A stretch of 64,000 nucleotides of DNA from a virus (lineage: Duplodnaviria; Heunggongvirae; Uroviricota; Caudoviricetes), in IMG/VR virus record IMGVR_UViG_2706794662_000007; one strand, 5' to 3'. Within the stretch, counting starts at the first letter, position 1; the number at the start of each line of letters is the position of its first letter. Below, in pieces: positions 9,580 to 55,321 of this stretch. Below the pieces are notes generated by a model. The model was not told where the DNA came from and ran no database searches. It saw only the letters and a program-made list of their open reading frames with translations. Both the position numbers and the translations under genes were made by a program.

Positions 9580-9843
9580 NNNNNNNNNNNNNNNNNNNNN
9601 NNNNNNNNNNNNNNNNNNNNNNNNNNNNNNNNNNNNNNNNNNNNNNNNNNNNNNNNNNNNNNNNNNNNNNNNNNNNNNNNNNNNNNNNNNNNNNNNNNNN
9701 NNNNNNNNNNNNNNNNNNNNNNNNNNNNNNNNNNNNNNNNNNNNNNNNNNNNNNNNNNNNNNNNNNNNNNNNNNNNNNNNNNNNNNNNNNNNNNNNNNNN
9801 NNNNNNNNNNNNNNNNNNNNNNNNNNNNNNNNNNNNNNNNNNN
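9580..9843. other. N-run (masked or unresolved sequence)
   Basis: 264 consecutive n. Confidence 1.
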
Positions 9844-15095: not shown

Positions 15096-17034
15096 TTACT
15101 TAACCTGGTGGCCAGGTTTAGCACCAGCATCCGGGCTTAACAGGAAGATATCTTTCCCGCCAGGACCGGCAGCCATCACCATGCCTTCAGAGATACCGAA
15201 GCGCATTTTACGTGGTGCCAGGTTAGCCACCATAATGGTGTGACGACCAATCAGTGCCTGTGGATCTGGATAAGCGGAACGGATGCCTGAGAAGACATTA
15301 CGCTTTTCACCACCGAGATCCAGCGTCAGGCGAAGCAGTTTGTCAGAACCTTCGACAAACTCCGCGTTTTCAATCAGCGCCACACGCAGGTCAACTTTGG
15401 CGAAGTCGTCAAAGGTGATGGTTTCCTGAATCGGTTCGTCAGCCAGTGGGCCAGTTACCGGTGCAGCTGTGGCTTTCACTTCTTCTTTGGATGCTTCCAC
15501 CAGTGCTTCCACCTGTTTCATATCGATACGGTTATACAGTGCCTTGAACGGATTCACTTTATGGCCCAGAAGCGGTTGCTGGATACCATCCCAGGTCAGT
15601 TCTGTATTCAGGAATGCTTCTGCACGTTCAGTCAGTTTCGGCAGTACCGGTTTCAGGTACGTCATCAGCACGCGGAACAGGTTAATGCCCATAGAGCAAA
15701 TCGCCTGCAGATCTGCATCGCGACCTTCCTGCTTCGCCACCACCCACGGAGCCTGTTCATCGACATAGCGATTAGCCAGGTCAGCCAATGCCATGATTTC
15801 ACGGATAGCTTTACCAAATTCGCGGCTTTCCCATGCTTCGCCAATCACTTCAGCGGCATCAGTAAAGGTTTTGTACAGTTGCGGGTCAGCCAGTTCGCTT
15901 GTCAGCACGCCGTCAAAACGCTTGTTGATAAAGCCTGCATTACGGGAGGCCAGGTTAACCACTTTGTTCACGATATCGGCATTCACGCGCTGAACGAAAT
16001 CTTCCAGGTTGAGATCGATATCATCAATGCGCGAAGAGAGTTTCGCAGTGTAGTAGTAACGCAGGCTGTCAGCGTCAAAATGATTCAGCCAGGTGCTGGC
16101 TTTAATAAAGGTGCCGCGAGACTTGGACATCTTCGCGCCGTTCACCGTCACATAGCCGTGAACAAACAGGTTGGTCGGCTTGCGGAAGTTGCTGCCTTCC
16201 AGCATGGCAGGCCAGAACAGACTGTGGAAGTAAACGATATCTTTGCCGATGAAGTGGTACAGCTCGGCGGTGGAGTCTTTCTTCCAGTATTCGTCGAAGC
16301 TTACGCTGTCGCCGCGCTTGTCGCACAGATTCTTGAAAGAACCCATGTAGCCAATCGGCGCGTCCAGCCAGACGTAGAAATATTTGCCCGGCGCGTTCGN
16401 NNNNNNNNNNNNNNNNNNNNNNNNNNNNNNNNNNNNNNNNNNNNNNNNNNNNNNNNNNNNNNNNNNNNNNNNNNNNNNNNNNNNNNNNNNNNNNNNNNNN
16501 NNNNNNNNNNNNNNNNNNNNNNNNNNNNNNNNNNNNNNNNNNNNNNNNNNNNNNNNNNNNNNNNNNNNNNNNNNNNNNNNNNNNNNNNNNNNNNNNNNNN
16601 NNNNNNNNNNNNNNNNNNNNNNNNNNNNNNNNNNNNNNNNNNNNNNNNNNNNNNNNNNNNNNNNNNNNNNNNNNNNNNNNNNNNNNNNNNNNNNNNNNNN
16701 NNNNNNNNNNNNNNNNNNNNNNNNNNNNCTCTTCGCTGTGCGTCGAGTGATAGTTGTCATAGCTGATGTTAAAGCCTGCGAAATCAGTCTGATGTTCCTG
16801 ACTCATTTCGCCAATCATCTGTTCCGGTGTGATACCAAGCTGCTGTGCTTTCAGCATGATTGGCGTACCGTGGGCATCGTCGGCACAGATGAAATTAACC
16901 TCGTGGCCGCGCATTCGCTGGTAACGAACCCAGACATCAGCCTGGATGTGCTCCAGCATATGGCCGAGGTGGATTGAGCCGTTAGCGTACGGCAGCGCGC
17001 ACGTCACCAGAATTTTCTTCGCGACTTGGGTCAT
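15096..17034 (-). CDS. metG: methionyl-tRNA synthetase (interrupted by N-run 16400-16728)
   Basis: Start [29 protein letters not shown] (HIGH-type motif) and C-terminus ...[24 protein letters not shown] match E. coli MetG as I recall it; the two flanking ORF fragments are in different frames because of the N-run. Confidence 0.95.
16400..16728. other. N-run inside metG
   Basis: 329 n. Confidence 1.
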
Positions 17035-18904: not shown

Positions 18905-19423
18905 CTAAAAATCAAANNNNNNNNNNNNNNNNNNNNNNNNNNNNNNNNNNNNNNNNNNNNNNNNNNNNNNNNNNNNNNNNNNNNNNNNNNNNNNNNNNNN
19001 NNNNNNNNNNNNNNNNNNNNNNNNNNNNNNNNNNNNNNNNNNNNNNNNNNNNNNNNNNNNNNNNNNNNNNNNNNNNNNNNNNNNNNNNNNNNNNNNNNNN
19101 NNNNNNNNNNNNNNNNNNNNNNNNNNNNNNNNNNNNNNNNNNNNNNNNNNNNNNNNNNNNNNNNNNNNNTTTAAAGGAAGATAGGTTCCCCATAGTAGCT
19201 GTCTGCCGTGCGCTCGTGTGAAATACCGGGCCATCTTCGGATTGCTATGCTGCTTAGGAGCGCCTGGTCTGTATGTCTGATACCCGGCCAACATCCCATC
19301 AAACCTGTATAGAGGGAATGTAACAACTCCTTCGCTTTCATCGATCCACTGTCTATATGGATGCACATCATAGCGGTAGTTACGAGTTAGCAAATGAGCT
19401 TCCAGCTTTCCAAATTTAGTCAT
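18905..19423 (-). CDS. hypothetical protein (interrupted by N-run)
   Basis: Start set to MTKFGKLEAH with GAGGGA ribosome-binding site; C-terminal part and frame uncertain. Confidence 0.35.
   Translation of the reverse strand: MTKFGKLEAHLLTRNYRYDVHPYRQWIDESEGVVTFPLYRFDGMLAGYQTYRPGAPKQHSNPKMARYFTRAHGRQLLWGTYLPLXXXXXXXXXXXXXXXXXXXXXXXXXXXXXXXXXXXXXXXXXXXXXXXXXXXXXXXXXXXXXXXXXXXXXXXXXXXXXXXXXXXXXFDF
18917..19169. other. N-run
   Basis: 253 n. Confidence 1.
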
Positions 19424-21475: not shown

Positions 21476-21748
21476 TTAACCCGCAGTGCNNNNNNNNNNN
21501 NNNNNNNNNNNNNNNNNNNNNNNNNNNNNNNNNNNNNNNNNNNNNNNNNNNNNNNNNNNNNNNNNNNNNNNNNNNNNNNNNNNNNNNNNNNNNNNNNNNN
21601 NNNNNNNNNNNNNNNNNNNNNNNNNNNNNNNNNNNNNNNNNNNNNNNNNNNNNNNNNNNNNNNNNNNNNNNNNNNNNNNNNNNNNNNNNNNNNNNNNNNN
21701 NNNNNNNNNNNNNNNNNNNNNNNNNNNNNNNNNNNNNNNAGTTGCCAT
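21476..21748 (-). CDS. hypothetical protein (mostly masked by N-run)
   Basis: ATG at 21748 preceded by conserved junction GGAGAGTGATATG; body is n. Confidence 0.3.
   Translation of the reverse strand: MATXXXXXXXXXXXXXXXXXXXXXXXXXXXXXXXXXXXXXXXXXXXXXXXXXXXXXXXXXXXXXXXXXXXXXXXXXXXXXXXXXXXXTAG
21490..21739. other. N-run
   Basis: 250 n. Confidence 1.
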
Positions 21749-25187: not shown

Positions 25188-26892
25188 TCATTTAACGCGT
25201 TTGAAAACGTATACGCTGACTGTGATCCCTGTGTCTTCAAACTCGTTGGTAAACGACTTCCCTCTGGCATAAACGTAATTATCCATCGTCATCCAGTCCA
25301 GTATTGGCGCNNNNNNNNNNNNNNNNNNNNNNNNNNNNNNNNNNNNNNNNNNNNNNNNNNNNNNNNNNNNNNNNNNNNNNNNNNNNNNNNNNNNNNNNNN
25401 NNNNNNNNNNNNNNNNNNNNNNNNNNNNNNNNNNNNNNNNNNNNNNNNNNNNNNNNNNNNNNNNNNNNNNNNNNNNNNNNNNNNNNNNNNNNNNNNNNNN
25501 NNNNNNNNNNNNNNNNNNNNNNNNNNNNNNNNNNNNNNNNNNNNNNNNNNNNNNNNNNNNNNNNNCCAGATCGGCGTTAATATAGGCCAGAAGATCCCCA
25601 CGTCCGGCTTGAGGCTCCAACAGCTTCTCACCAGGCTTCAATTCAGTGGCTCTGGCAACGTACTCAGCAATCAAGCGTGGGGTAGGGTAGAACTGGTGTG
25701 ATTTTGTATCCGGTATTAAACCGGTAGCCACAATCGTATTTAGCGTATGGCCGATCTCATACGGGAACTGCCAGTGCTTTTTCTCCTGCACGCCGCCAAT
25801 GAAGCTCAGTGTGCGCTCAAGCTCTTCCACCTGCGACTTCTGGAGAGCTGAATCAGAGAAGTACCATACGCCTTTGTCTTTGCTCAATCGCCCGTCACGA
25901 AGCGCAGTGCGAACCGGCACGGAGATCGTCTTCTGGATTAACCCGAACTGCTTTGGTGCCCGTGTTTTTGGCGCAGTTCGGCATGGCGCGGGGATTGCAG
26001 CAGGCATACTGTAAGCCAGCACCTCATTCAACTTCCAGGCCACGTCAGGATGTATTTCAAAGTGAACGTTGCCGTTCTTGAACATCTTCACGCGCATCAG
26101 ATTTCCATCGACGTTCATCCAGTCACCGGTCTGGCAGTCGTTTGCCCGATACGCAGCTGATAGCACCTCAGCAGTGCGGTTGATGGTAATAAATTCTTTG
26201 TGCGCGAAGAAATGAAGCAAGACACGCAGATCGTCGATGTAGTCCTCTTTGCGATAGTTCACGCTAACGCTGTCACGCCAGAAATCAGAAATGCAGTCAG
26301 CGATTATCAGACGCTCGCTGAAACCGTTTGTCTTATTTGTCTTGTGCGCAGGACTCAGCGCCTTAAACAAGCCATACACGCGCTCAGAGAGATATTTGTG
26401 CCTGTCATTCAGCAAATTAAGCATCGTTGGTATGACCGTTTCTGCTTTGAACTCCGGTACACCAACGAACTCTTTAACCTTCATCTGATAGCCGGTTCTG
26501 TCAGTTTTGATGACTTCCTGCTTGCCCTCGATAAATAGCTCACGCCACTCGTCGCGACGGGAAGCTGGCATGATCAGCAGAACGTTAGTCATATCCGTAA
26601 CCTTCCTCCAGTACTCGGCCCAAATATTCTGTTTCACCCATTCCAGATCGACGTTATCCAGCCAGACTCGATTCAAACGTGAGCGATCTTCATCTGGTCG
26701 GTGGTTTAGTCGAAGCAGGCGATTAATCATGTTGTGGCGTTCATCGCCATAAACGAAGTCGTGTACCTGATACATGAAGGAGATCTCTTTCTCGCACTCG
26801 GCCACAATTTCGTGGATGACGTTCATTTCCTGTCGATAGTCGATAGCAGTGTTTGAGCTGGCATCGCCCATGATGGAAAGGGCTGTATTCAT
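25188..26892 (-). CDS. putative N6-adenine DNA methyltransferase with large N-terminal extension (C-terminal part masked)
   Basis: FYPTPRLIAEYV followed by EPQAGRGDLLAYI (motif X then motif I, gamma-class order) just before the N-run; the catalytic (D/N)PPY region would lie in the masked part. Confidence 0.45.
25311..25565. other. N-run
   Basis: 255 n. Confidence 1.
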
Positions 26893-28660: not shown

Positions 28661-28819
28661 TTAACACGTTGCTTTACGGACTAGCGGATAAGCGAAGTAG
28701 ATCGCCAGACCAATGAGGACGCCATCAGAAATGACAGACATCATCTTTCCCGTAAAATCCACCAACACCGCCATCACCAGAAGAGCAATGACGGTCACAA
28801 GCCGGAATCTCTCAAGCAT
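28661..28819 (-). CDS. small hydrophobic peptide (52 aa), coupled to TerB-like gene
   Basis: Manual translation MLERFRLVTVIALLVMAVLVDFTGKMMSVISDGVLIGLAIYFAYPLVRKATC; ATG overlaps upstream stop as TAATG; below ORF-track size cutoff. Confidence 0.35.
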   Translation of the reverse strand: MLERFRLVTVIALLVMAVLVDFTGKMMSVISDGVLIGLAIYFAYPLVRKATC

Positions 28820-29244
28820 TAGAGATAAGCATCCAGTGACAACTGAAGCGCCTGGGCGATCTTTTTCAGCGCCTGCTCTTCTGGTTCATCAATGCCGTCT
28901 TGGTCGGCAATATCAAGGCACAGACAAAGTACATCTACTGCATCATCAGTCCCGGCCACATCCGCCAGCTCACGTAAAGCCTGGGCATTAGCACGGCGCG
29001 GTGAGGCTTCGTATTGAGCGCGGATATTGGCGCTCATCTGGGCTATCTCACCAGCAAAAGGAGAAAATGCAGGCAGAGCTGCAATTGTTTTCTCAAGAAT
29101 GGAAATTTCTTTTGCATCGCATGTACCGTTGGCATAGGAGATCATGTACCCACCCCACACGGTGGCTTCAACCGCATCACGGTTCTCCATTTTTTTGACT
29201 TCGATAACTGCTTTACGAGTTTTCTTTTTGAAGAAACCTAACAT
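28819..29244 (-). CDS. TerB-like domain protein (hypothetical)
   Basis: 141 aa, all-helical profile reminiscent of TerB; motif A at 29268-29284 upstream. Confidence 0.4.
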   Translation of the reverse strand: MLGFFKKKTRKAVIEVKKMENRDAVEATVWGGYMISYANGTCDAKEISILEKTIAALPAFSPFAGEIAQMSANIRAQYEASPRRANAQALRELADVAGTDDAVDVLCLCLDIADQDGIDEPEEQALKKIAQALQLSLDAYL

Positions 29245-29337
29245 GTGTTTTCCTTTTGTTATTGGTCAAAACAAGTTGTTTTCTAGTTAAATAAATTGCT
29301 TACGCAAAGACGGTCAATGCATATGCACTAACAACCG

Positions 29338-29526
29338 TCAGAAATAACCAAGTACCGAACCGACTGGAAAAATAAAAATCCCAACTACACGAGCCAAGGT
29401 CATGCCAGCCTGAAACTGGAGATCGCCAGAGCAAACAAGTTTTATAATGTTCGATACCCAACCGGCGGCCATGAGGGCAAGAATTGCCAGCCAAATTTTT
29501 CCAAAGTGATTTGAAAACCAGTTCAT
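29338..29526 (-). CDS. small membrane protein
   Basis: 62 aa, hydrophobic segments WLAILALMAAGWV and VVGIFIFPVGSVLGYF. Confidence 0.4.
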   Translation of the reverse strand: MNWFSNHFGKIWLAILALMAAGWVSNIIKLVCSGDLQFQAGMTLARVVGIFIFPVGSVLGYF

Positions 29527-30051: not shown

Positions 30052-30175
30052 AAAGAGTTGCGGCTGGCAATCGCCAGCCGCCTTTCTCGTTCCATCCTGG
30101 AACTGTGTCTTACCGACACATTGTCATCCTGACGCCGATAAGATACATGATTTATAATGATAGGTAAACACTTAC

Positions 30176-43272: not shown

Positions 43273-45195
43273 AGCTGCGCCCCTCTTTAACTTCCAGCGT
43301 AATAGTTTCCCGGAACCATGACTTCATCTCTTTATGGGAGATAATCAGCACAGTACCTCGCTCGCGAGCTTTGGACTCCAGAATACCCATGAGGCGTTCA
43401 AGACCGGCTGTATCGAGTGCATCGTCAATTTCGTCGCCGATAAACAAATCGATGTTTTTACTCGCCCGGTTACTAACCAGATCCTGCAATGCCAAAGAAC
43501 ACGCAATGCGAACCTTCCGCTTCTCACCACCAGAGAGGGTCTGGAACGACTTACTTGAACCTTTCTTCTGCACACTAATGTTGAATTTGTCGCGATACTC
43601 ACCTTTTTTGGTGACATCCATCGTCGACCACTCAGCAGTAATATTCCCGTCAGACAACGTATTGAGATACTCGGCAGTGCGTGTATTCAGGAAAGGCGTA
43701 ACAGACGTCAAAATATGAGAACGCACCCCGGCAGGAGAGTAGACCTGACGAGCTTTTTCCAATAGCAACGTTTGTTCCTGAATAGCCTTCAACTCATCTT
43801 TTAAGGACTTGAAGGTAGACTTACTGGATACCAGGTTATCTTCGTGTCTGGCGATAAGAGCAATAAACGGATTAATCTCTTTTGATATACGATCGACCTC
43901 AGTACGAGCACGAGTCACAAGAGACTCAATAGCAACAATCTCCTTCTCACGATGACGCAAAGATGAGAGTTGTTTCGTAAGCTCTTCAATCCGGGCAATG
44001 ATAGCCGTTACATCAGGTGTCGTTTTAACAAGGGCAGACTCAATGCTTAACGCTTTCTCAAGATTCGTTTTGTGTTTAGCCATTGCCTCTGCAAGTGTCT
44101 TCGCCTGACCAATTTCCTGACGTGCTTGTTCAATGAAATTCTCCTTCACCGTTGATAGATCTTCTTCGCAGTAGGCTTTGCCACAAGTAGGGCATGGTGA
44201 TCCCACTTTAGTACCAACCTCTTCTGCTTTGGTCTTAAAATTACGCGCGCGGTTCATTGCATCAGCCTGACTATTTTCTGTAGCTTTGATGCTTGCCCGA
44301 ATATCAGTTATCGCACCACGAACNNNNNNNNNNNNNNNNNNNNNNNNNNNNNNNNNNNNNNNNNNNNNNNNNNNNNNNNNNNNNNNNNNNNNNNNNNNNN
44401 NNNNNNNNNNNNNNNNNNNNNNNNNNNNNNNNNNNNNNNNNNNNNNNNNNNNNNNNNNNNNNNNNNNNNNNNNNNNNNNNNNNNNNNNNNNNNNNNNNNN
44501 NNNNNNNNNNNNNNNNNNNNNNNNNNNNNNNNNNNNNNNNNNNNNNNNNNNNNNNNNNNNNNNNNNNNNNNNNNNNNNNNNNNNNNGATTGTCGACTCCA
44601 ATTTGGTTTTAACCACATCCATACGTGCGGCAGCTGCATTAGCTCGCTCACGAGCAATAGCGTAGGCGCGTGTCAGTCTGTCAACGCCAGCGGCTTCTTC
44701 TACGATGGTTTTGAGGTTTTTGTCGGACATTCCAGGTAAATCTGGCATAGCTTCTTGGCTCGCATAGATGGAAGCCATGAAAACCTCTTTAGATGCACCG
44801 ATCAGACGCTCGACGAACTCTTGCGTCAGCGCATCTTTGCCTTTCGTCATATCGCCGTCTTCACCACGAACGATAAGCCGATTTTTGAACTCTTTGTGTT
44901 TACGGTGACGAATGATCGCATATCTCTTGCCTTCATCCTCGATGGTTACTGCAACACGACAGTTCTTTTCATGGTCGGTAGACAACACATCGTCACCCTT
45001 CACACCATGAGCTGTTTCGCCATAAAGACACCACATCAGGCTATTCATTAGCGTTGACTTTCCAGAGCCATTACTTGATGCGGAACTATCATCACTATTA
45101 ACACCCTGAATGAGCACTAAACCACGCTGATCTAACTCGACCTCCGCGCTGGCGATAGCCATAAAATTCTCAACCTGGAGCTTTAAAAACTTCAT
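43262..45195 (-). CDS. SbcC/Rad50-like ATPase (gp46-like), interrupted by N-run 44324-44586
   Basis: N-terminal Walker A GSNGSGKST; C-terminal signature LSGGEKRK and Walker B LFIGDEID; coiled-coil middle. Confidence 0.8.
44324..44586. other. N-run
   Basis: 263 n. Confidence 1.
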
Positions 45196-54230: not shown

Positions 54231-55321
54231 TTACTCTTCTACTGACTCGGTGGGGTTGTCTTTTGCTCTTCGGTCGTCGATTGCCTGCAAAGCCGCAATG
54301 ATTTCAGCCAGTGGCTTCTCCCGATACATCTCGACGATCTGCGATTTGGTGTATTTCTTGTCACCAATTTCAACTCGCCCGCTGGCGTTCTTTGGCAGGT
54401 ATCCTTCTTCCAGCATGTACTCGACGAGCGATTCGATAACGTCGAGGCCACGAGTAGGATCGAAGTAGAATTTCCAGGTGCATTTGCCATACGGTGGTGC
54501 AACTTTGTTTTTGATGCATTCTGCGCCTACGTCCTGGCCGATCTTCTCTTTACCATCCTTCATCACCGATGCACCAAGACGGATACGTACAGAAGCGTAG
54601 AACTTCGGTGAATCTCCACCTGGAGACGTAGTAGGGTCGCCAAACATTACACCGATTTTTGTGCGAACCTGATTCAAGAAGATGATGCAGGCGTTGTATT
54701 TGCGTGCCCACAAAGCCAGAGTAGGGAAGTTCGCACTTGTCGCACGAGCCAGTGCCGTATTGTCGTTCATGTTTAGCTGATCTTTGTCTTTGGCAGTGCC
54801 TTCAGCCATCTTTTCGAACTTCTCGGCTTTGGAGTTCGGAACCATAGACGCAAGTGAGTCAGCCACGATACAGATAGGTGCTGATTCAGGAATAAGCTCT
54901 TCATCACGTACCAATTTAAGAATTGTGCCGATCAACTCTACAGAGTCTTCGAAGGTATCAGGCTGCTTGTATACCCACTGACCGTCATCCTCATCTGCAT
55001 TCAAACCATTGGCTACAGCCAGGCCAACGTCAAAACTGTTCTCATGATCGAGGANNNNNNNNNNNNNNNNNNNNNNNNNNNNNNNNNNNNNNNNNNNNNN
55101 NNNNNNNNNNNNNNNNNNNNNNNNNNNNNNNNNNNNNNNNNNNNNNNNNNNNNNNNNNNNNNNNNNNNNNNNNNNNNNNNNNNNNNNNNNNNNNNNNNNN
55201 NNNNNNNNNNNNNNNNNNNNNNNNNNNNNNNNNNNNNNNNNNNNNNNNNNNNNNNNNNNNNNNNNNNNNNNNNNNNNNNNNNNNNNNNNNNNNNNNNNNN
55301 NNNNNNNNNNNNTTTTGCCAT
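54231..55321 (-). CDS. RecA-family recombinase (UvsX/RecA-like), interrupted by N-run 55055-55312
   Basis: C-terminal part ...IIFLNQVRTKIGVMFGDPTTSPGGDSPKFYASVRIRLG matches the RecA core (loop L2 region); N-terminal ATG at 55321; Walker motifs presumably masked. Confidence 0.8.
55055..55312. other. N-run
   Basis: 258 n. Confidence 1.

Follow-up and report, generated by a model that had tools for sequence, protein, structure and literature searches.

The window, a stretch of 64,000 nucleotides from the Caudoviricetes record IMGVR_UViG_2706794662_000007, carries on its minus strand a gene for a 141-amino acid protein, tciA, followed by a gene for a 52-amino acid peptide, tciB (Table 1). The original prediction, made from the sequence of this stretch, described the stop codon of the first gene as overlapping the start codon of the second in the form TAATG. 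Direct reading confirms this: bases 28817-28821 of the plus strand are CATTA, hence TAATG on the coding strand. Based on sequence similarity, the pair is tciA-tciB, a known accessory ('moron') cassette that was first given its name in phage P1.

Table 1. Position of the tciA-tciB genes, their signals and other features of the window
Feature	Position	Strand	Description
tciA	28819..29244	-	141-aa TerB-fold protein; basic hydrophobic N-terminal tail and acidic helical domain
tciB	28661..28819	-	52-aa DUF3927 peptide; two predicted hydrophobic helices, conserved polar loop between them, invariant P45
TAATG junction	28817..28821	-	tciA stop TAA and tciB start ATG, one base in common; read from sequence
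Shine-Dalgarno AAGGA	29251..29255	-	6-10 nt 5' of tciA ATG; read from sequence
Palindrome AAACAA-G-TTGTTT	29269..29281	.	24 nt 5' of tciA ATG
AAACAA-S-TTGTTT 13-nt sites	992, 1017, 12012, 12497, 14062, 14948, 14999, 18842, 28540, 29269, 39486		All copies in the window
62-aa ORF	29338..29526	-	Two hydrophobic segments; directly upstream of tciA
GC-rich hairpin	30060..30081		9 pairs, 8 of them G-C; between RNase H gene and 171-aa ORF
Protospacer	28954..28985		32 nt, inside tciA
Masked N runs	9580..9843, 16400..16728, 18917..19169, 21490..21739, 25311..25565, 44324..44586, 55055..55312		Seven runs of 250-329 nt; one interrupts a DUF4942 methylase-like ORF (25279..26892)

The Shine-Dalgarno motif upstream of tciA is kept in phage Cyrano and is found in an altered form in Klebsiella phage pJN2-26. 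No well-placed Shine-Dalgarno is present in the 16 nt located 5' of the tciB ATG (TGGATGCTTATCTCTA), and translation of tciB thus probably depends on ribosomes terminating at tciA. Stop/start overlaps of 1 to 4 nt are ordinary among operon genes; as judged from the related sequences, the informative point of this one is its conservation. Indeed, the overlap measures 1 or 4 nt in all 148 related loci, a set comprising 88 distinct nucleotide alleles, 55 distinct TciA proteins and 54 distinct TciB proteins. Among the 88 alleles, the junction reads TAATG in 41, GTGA in 33, TGATG in 12 and ATGA in 2. Translational coupling, which the original prediction had proposed, fits this arrangement and is a probable step, to judge from the overlap found in all relatives and from the lack of a usable tciB Shine-Dalgarno. 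A 92-amino acid ORF spanning the pair on the plus strand (28713-28991) was given no weight, as selection and homology favour the minus-strand frames.

TciA is a cytoplasmic protein of the TerB family, as its original description as TerB-like implied. It matches the Pfam TerB domain (PF05099) over residues 33-136 with a score of 26.2 bits, above the cut-off of 24.4 (E=1e-5), and phrog_632 with an E-value of 2.8e-61; most TciA relatives are already assigned to PF05099 in precomputed annotation. A profile built from ten relatives retrieves the solved TerB structure 2JXU (E=2.1e-14, positions 15-138). The profile was needed here: a PDB search using TciA as a single sequence returned nothing meaningful and missed 2JXU, the identity between the two being too low. 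The AF2 model (pLDDT 90.9, pTM 0.87) shows a disordered stretch at residues 1-20 followed by six helices, and a structure comparison places it closest to TerB-like structures. Residues 1-20, starting with MLGFFKKK, have a net charge of +5, and the remainder of the protein has a net charge of -11. The second acidic motif, [AS]DG...E, is intact (D116 G117 ... E122), while the first reads A38 N39 G40 ... E46, D39 being present in at least 90% of relatives. The asparagine (window 29128-29130) is common to the window TciA and those relatives that are 100% identical to it. TciA contains neither a DNA-binding nor an RNase domain, the helix-turn-helix matches remaining below threshold (HTH_3, 13.9 bits against 23; RstR, 18.8 against 80). 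Neither TciA nor TciB matches any PADLOC model, and NCBIfam gave nothing significant for either.

The second gene was predicted as an unannotated peptide with two membrane helices. Hydropathy and the match to DUF3927 bear out the helices, but the word 'unannotated' is wrong at the family level: TciB scores 47.4 bits against Pfam DUF3927 (PF13064; cut-off 25, E=1.9e-12) and matches phrog_1470, 'TciB-like', at 7.8e-21, the Cyrano gene is annotated 'P1 TciB-like protein', and the RefSeq product name is 'DUF3927 family protein'. The hydrophobic segments cover approximately residues 7-22 and 30-43, with a polar loop between them (GRAVY 1.32). D21, F22, S28, D32, G33 and P45 are invariant across the 54 distinct proteins, and conservation is centred on the polar loop, D21 F22 ... 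S28 ... D32 G33. From its sequence and family membership, TciB is predicted to be a helical-hairpin membrane peptide. A word-indexed protein search with TciB yielded 12 close relatives only, and comparison with phage TerC by hhalign revealed no relationship (probability 0.1%).

Conservation of the pair in relatives, which the original prediction had put forward as a check, is nearly complete. A TciB match is present at all 82 tciA-anchored loci, and tciA lies directly 5' of tciB at 81 of the 84 tciB-anchored loci. The three exceptions are a contig edge (L110) and two orphans: a short tciB directly 3' of a methyltransferase gene (L084) and a degenerate copy whose second helix is disrupted (L086). 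A profile scan of genome contigs with the TciB alignment returned four loci. Relative to the window allele, and where dS is measurable, dN/dS ranges from 0.03 to 0.14 for tciA and from 0.15 to 0.41 for tciB. Both genes are therefore under purifying selection, with TciB evolving several times faster (TciA identities of 80-88% correspond to TciB identities of 31-65%). Taken with the DUF3927 match and the constant overlap, this selection places tciB well beyond a chance ORF. On the evidence of these loci, tciA and tciB are inherited as a unit in which the overlap is kept.

DNA similarity to Klebsiella phage-plasmids is confined to positions 28682-29295, that is, to tciB, tciA and about 50 nt upstream. 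That similarity ends at the edges of tciAB indicates that the two genes travel together as a cassette. In close E. coli relatives (L018, L095 and others), tciA shows 27 differing sites and tciB is identical; this unequal divergence points to recombination within or beside the cassette, that is, mosaic evolution.

We observed no C-terminal membrane fusion in the TciA family among the best 150 of 262 clusters. One candidate for a natural fusion, P0097 (196 amino acids, TerB plus DUF3927), was rejected: it is a single Logan sequence whose junction (...LEQLYLMVIKARL) sits where P1 has its stop/start overlap, and it appears to be P1 tciA/tciB with a 1-nt frameshift. The AF2 model of a TciA-TciB fusion of the P0097 type had a pTM of 0.64, with pLDDT values of 46-67 in the TciB part, and is uninformative about docking. 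TciB rows were left out of the MAFFT alignment, in which they were mis-aligned onto TerB.

Over the 2.2 kb that were compared, the window matches Escherichia phage CMS-2020a (109 kb) at 100% identity, and phage Cyrano is 95% identical to the window, with genes labelled 'P1 TciA-like' and 'P1 TciB-like'. A search of 5426 complete E. coli genomes identified the 584-bp pair in 218, and 216 of the 222 places where it occurs are plasmid-borne; the plasmids, among those listed, measure about 106-113 kb. RefSeq names the first product 'tellurite resistance TerB family protein'. According to these matches, the window pair sits in an E. coli phage-plasmid of about 110 kb.

The pair is also carried by virulent phages, namely N4-like, jumbo and Pseudomonas phages (Schitoviridae, Machinavirus and Nickievirus). 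The tciA and tciB genes abut in the N4-like phage Pollock (Schitoviridae), and they are separated by a 3-nt gap in Erwinia and Salmonella jumbo phages (Machinavirus), where the DUF3927 match is weak. In Pseudomonas phage ZY21 (L168, 986-1174), a 62-amino acid TciB, given as 39 amino acids in the record, begins 2 nt past the TerB stop; in Pseudomonas phage AF (L169, 1932-2153), an unannotated one-helix ORF of 73 amino acids lies across the TerB stop. The N4-like Vibrio phage BUCT194 (L170, 1-1923) has TerB, TerC (PF03741, 3e-41) and a TciA-type TerB in a row, an arrangement that we read from the sequence as a phage-borne partial ter cluster. No membrane gene adjoins the TerB gene of phage PMBT3, the sole such case among the distant phages examined. 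Judging from these gene orders, TciA-type TerB genes generally lie next to a gene for a membrane protein. TciA-type TerB genes are also seen beside tRNA genes in P1 (L002), in the Erwinia and Salmonella jumbo phages (L167, L172) and in ZY21 (L168); a tRNA scan of the window found none.

Within the window, the pair belongs to a long minus-strand block encoding RNase H, a Dam-type adenine methylase, an exonuclease, DHFR, PNK and ThyX, which by its gene content looks like an early, DNA-metabolism region. The palindrome AAACAA-S-TTGTTT, one copy of which precedes tciA, is found 11 times in the window when up to one mismatch is allowed, against 0.2 expected. Most copies are located about 11-30 nt 5' of minus-strand gene starts, including that of the gene next downstream of tciB, and they often take the form GAAAACAACTTGTTT. 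The palindrome is kept 5' of tciA in Klebsiella phage pJN2-26 despite diverged flanks and is absent in P1. This distribution suggests that it is probably an operator or a promoter-linked site specific to this group of phage-plasmids; if so, the pair would have its own regulated 5' region. A sigma-70 consensus scan upstream of tciA gave no convincing promoter, and an Rfam search produced no match, leaving no antisense or known RNA element at the pair.

Further upstream, the strong GC-rich hairpin listed in Table 1 looks, from its sequence, like a terminator on either strand; the transcription unit holding tciAB may begin there. The 62-amino acid ORF directly upstream of tciA matches phrog_6006 (2e-25). 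Sequence homologous to it forms the N-terminal extension of some database TciA entries, for example P0034, an extension that looks like a gene-calling artefact. The protospacer inside tciA is identical to a 32-nt spacer in a chromosomal type I-E array of E. coli EC42405 (NZ_CP043414.1), where the array adjoins cas2e. In the canonical repeat orientation this protospacer is preceded by ATG, which we take to be an interference-proficient I-E PAM.

The closest known system is the tciABC operon of P1. The two TciA proteins are 80% identical and the two TciB proteins, both DUF3927, 39% identical; gene order and the one-base overlap (TGATG in P1) are the same. The window differs in lacking tciC, which encodes a 35-amino acid single-helix peptide in P1, as well as the flanking tRNA genes and the ban operon, in its upstream regulatory palindrome, and in the N39 of TciA described above. 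No hydrophobic ORF resembling tciC follows tciB in the window; the ORF found there encodes 56 amino acids, lacks hydrophobic character and recurs in near-identical relatives only. Of the 72 distinct sequences that follow tciB, the P1 locus alone has tciC. The three P1 genes are annotated by homology only and lie between the C1-controlled Pban promoter and ban, on the same strand. Published work on P1 reports that they are transcribed during lytic infection and that each is non-essential by CRISPRi, and nearly half of P1 subgroup-1 plasmids have been found to lack the operon, which was lost.

TciA has the fold and family of the TerB protein encoded by terZABCDEF of Klebsiella and E. coli (2JXU), including a similarly basic N-terminus; the acidic DG...E motif is duplicated, its first copy carrying N39 in the window TciA. 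TerB has been shown to interact with an integral membrane protein, TerC, and a TciA-type TerB adjoins TerC in BUCT194; in the window, however, the partner would be a 52-amino acid hairpin unrelated to TerC, and terZ, A, C, D and E are missing from the neighbourhood of the pair. A tblastn search of the window detected no homologue of TerC, and the neighbours within about 6 kb include no ter genes. As far as this gene content tells, the pair is not a Ter system, since terC, absent from the window, and terD and E, absent from the 6-kb neighbourhood, are the minimal resistance genes. In the published literature, tellurite resistance is attributed to terCDE and filamentation to terZAB and not to terCDE, and the canonical ter cluster confers resistance to phages and colicins. 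TerB domains, described as membrane-attached or amphitropic, also form part of the defence systems Bunzi, Shango and Dionysus, and membrane surveillance is their proposed role; Dionysus, which is TerB-based, targets jumbo phages. The suggestion in the original prediction that such a pair could form a 'membrane stress module' agrees, by analogy, with these descriptions of TerB as an amphitropic protein, a partner of TerC and a defence component. Bunzi (BnzA), Shango (SngA) and Dionysus (DinB and the pore-forming DinC) resemble tciAB in combining a TerB domain with membrane-embedded components. In contrast to tciAB, which is phage-borne, occurs in virulent phages as well and matches no PADLOC model, they are bacterial, comprise three or more genes and include helicase/ATPase or four-helix pore-forming effectors.

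The explanation that we favour, and to which we would give about an even chance, is that TciB is a dedicated inner-membrane partner of TciA, produced by coupled translation, and that the two form a dispensable module adjusting host membrane physiology. Ribosomes finishing tciA would re-initiate at the overlapping AUG, such that both proteins would be made together. TciB would insert in the inner membrane such that the basic termini lie on the cytoplasmic side and the conserved acidic loop faces outward, an N-in/C-in topology predicted by the positive-inside rule. It would hold or regulate TciA at the membrane, in a manner similar to the partnership of TerC with TerB in the ter system; direct binding of TciA and TciB is proposed by this analogy and may occur. 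The pair would be transcribed along with the early genes of DNA metabolism, from a 5' region of its own marked by the palindrome, and would be dispensable for laboratory growth. Its most likely effect would be on the physiology of the host inner membrane during phage development: candidate outcomes are that the membrane is protected or that superinfecting phages and pore-forming colicins are excluded, with a delay of cell division as a further possibility. Exclusion, colicin resistance and division delay are phenotypes that tciAB may have, by analogy with the canonical ter system, from which they are wholly drawn and with which the pair has one component in common. Several observations count against a partnership. 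No more than about 10 residues of an N-in/C-in TciB would face the cytoplasm, the PMBT3 TerB gene stands without a membrane gene, natural fusions are absent among the best clusters surveyed, and recombination between tciA and tciB, as suggested by the mosaic pattern, argues against tight co-adaptation.

We may also hypothesize that the pair is a sensor-effector module for exclusion or abortive infection, in which TciA would sense the membrane and TciB would perturb it upon attack by a second phage or a colicin, in resemblance to Bunzi, Shango and Dionysus. TerB domains are found beside membrane or pore-forming proteins in validated defence systems, the canonical ter cluster provides resistance against both kinds of attack, and tciAB is typical accessory cargo of temperate phage-plasmids; we nevertheless hold this reading to be unlikely, because neither protein matches a PADLOC model, virulent phages also carry the pair, the conservation of TciB lies in its polar loop and not in pore-lining features, and the P1 pair, as inferred from its position, apparently belongs to a C1-repressed lytic operon that is not expressed from the prophage. 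The pair could also be a counter-defence decoy, a TerB mimic held at the membrane by TciB and interfering with host Ter, Shango, Bunzi or Dionysus. Its carriage by virulent phages, jumbo phages included, the targeting of jumbo phages by Dionysus and the position of the pair among early genes would fit. Such a role is purely inferential, however, it assumes that TerB-based systems exist in the enterobacterial hosts of the element, and no anti-defence family matches either protein, which makes it very improbable. A wider formulation, a minimal phage TerB sensor with its membrane peptide acting either through membrane state to exclude superinfecting phages and colicins or as a decoy against host TerB immunity, is quite unlikely in our estimate; if true, it would provide the first function for DUF3927 and for stand-alone phage TerB proteins.

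In the GhoS/GhoT type V toxin-antitoxin system, the gene of a soluble protein precedes that of a two-helix membrane peptide of about 57 amino acids in one operon, and GhoS is an RNase cleaving ghoT mRNA. The same succession in tciAB could suggest that TciB is a small membrane toxin and TciA its co-translated upstream antitoxin, serving plasmid addiction. Soluble-then-hydrophobic gene order and an overlap of 1-4 nt are typical of such operons, tciB is almost never seen on its own, TerB can lack a tciB neighbour, and the element is a plasmid prophage. This idea, already raised in the original prediction, is not supported by our results and is distinctly unlikely. There is no sequence or family match to GhoS/GhoT, and TciA has a TerB fold in place of a toxin-antitoxin domain, DNA-binding and RNase domains included; neither defence nor toxin-antitoxin models match the pair, and no antisense or known RNA element accompanies it. 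The pair also resides in virulent N4-like, jumbo and Nickievirus phages, which need no addiction modules, and the loss of the operon from nearly half of P1 subgroup-1 plasmids likewise counts against the idea. As for a tellurite resistance gene acquired by lysogenic conversion, as many database product names have it and as reviews have speculated, we consider it extremely unlikely: resistance maps to terCDE and not to terZAB, TerC has no homologue in the window, ter genes are absent among the neighbours of the pair, and the authors of the D6-like plasmid study regard the operon as incomplete.

The pair was already known: its name dates from the description of the P1 genome, Pfam and PHROG families cover it, and annotations of it exist in hundreds of genomes. 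Its weight as a new finding is small, and it remains useful as a target for experiments. What tciAB offers is a two-gene cassette of about 580 bp that is strictly co-inherited across unrelated temperate and virulent phages. Since TerB domains are now found in anti-phage systems, this smallest natural unit of a TerB protein and its putative membrane partner may be a convenient model for the action of TerB at the membrane.
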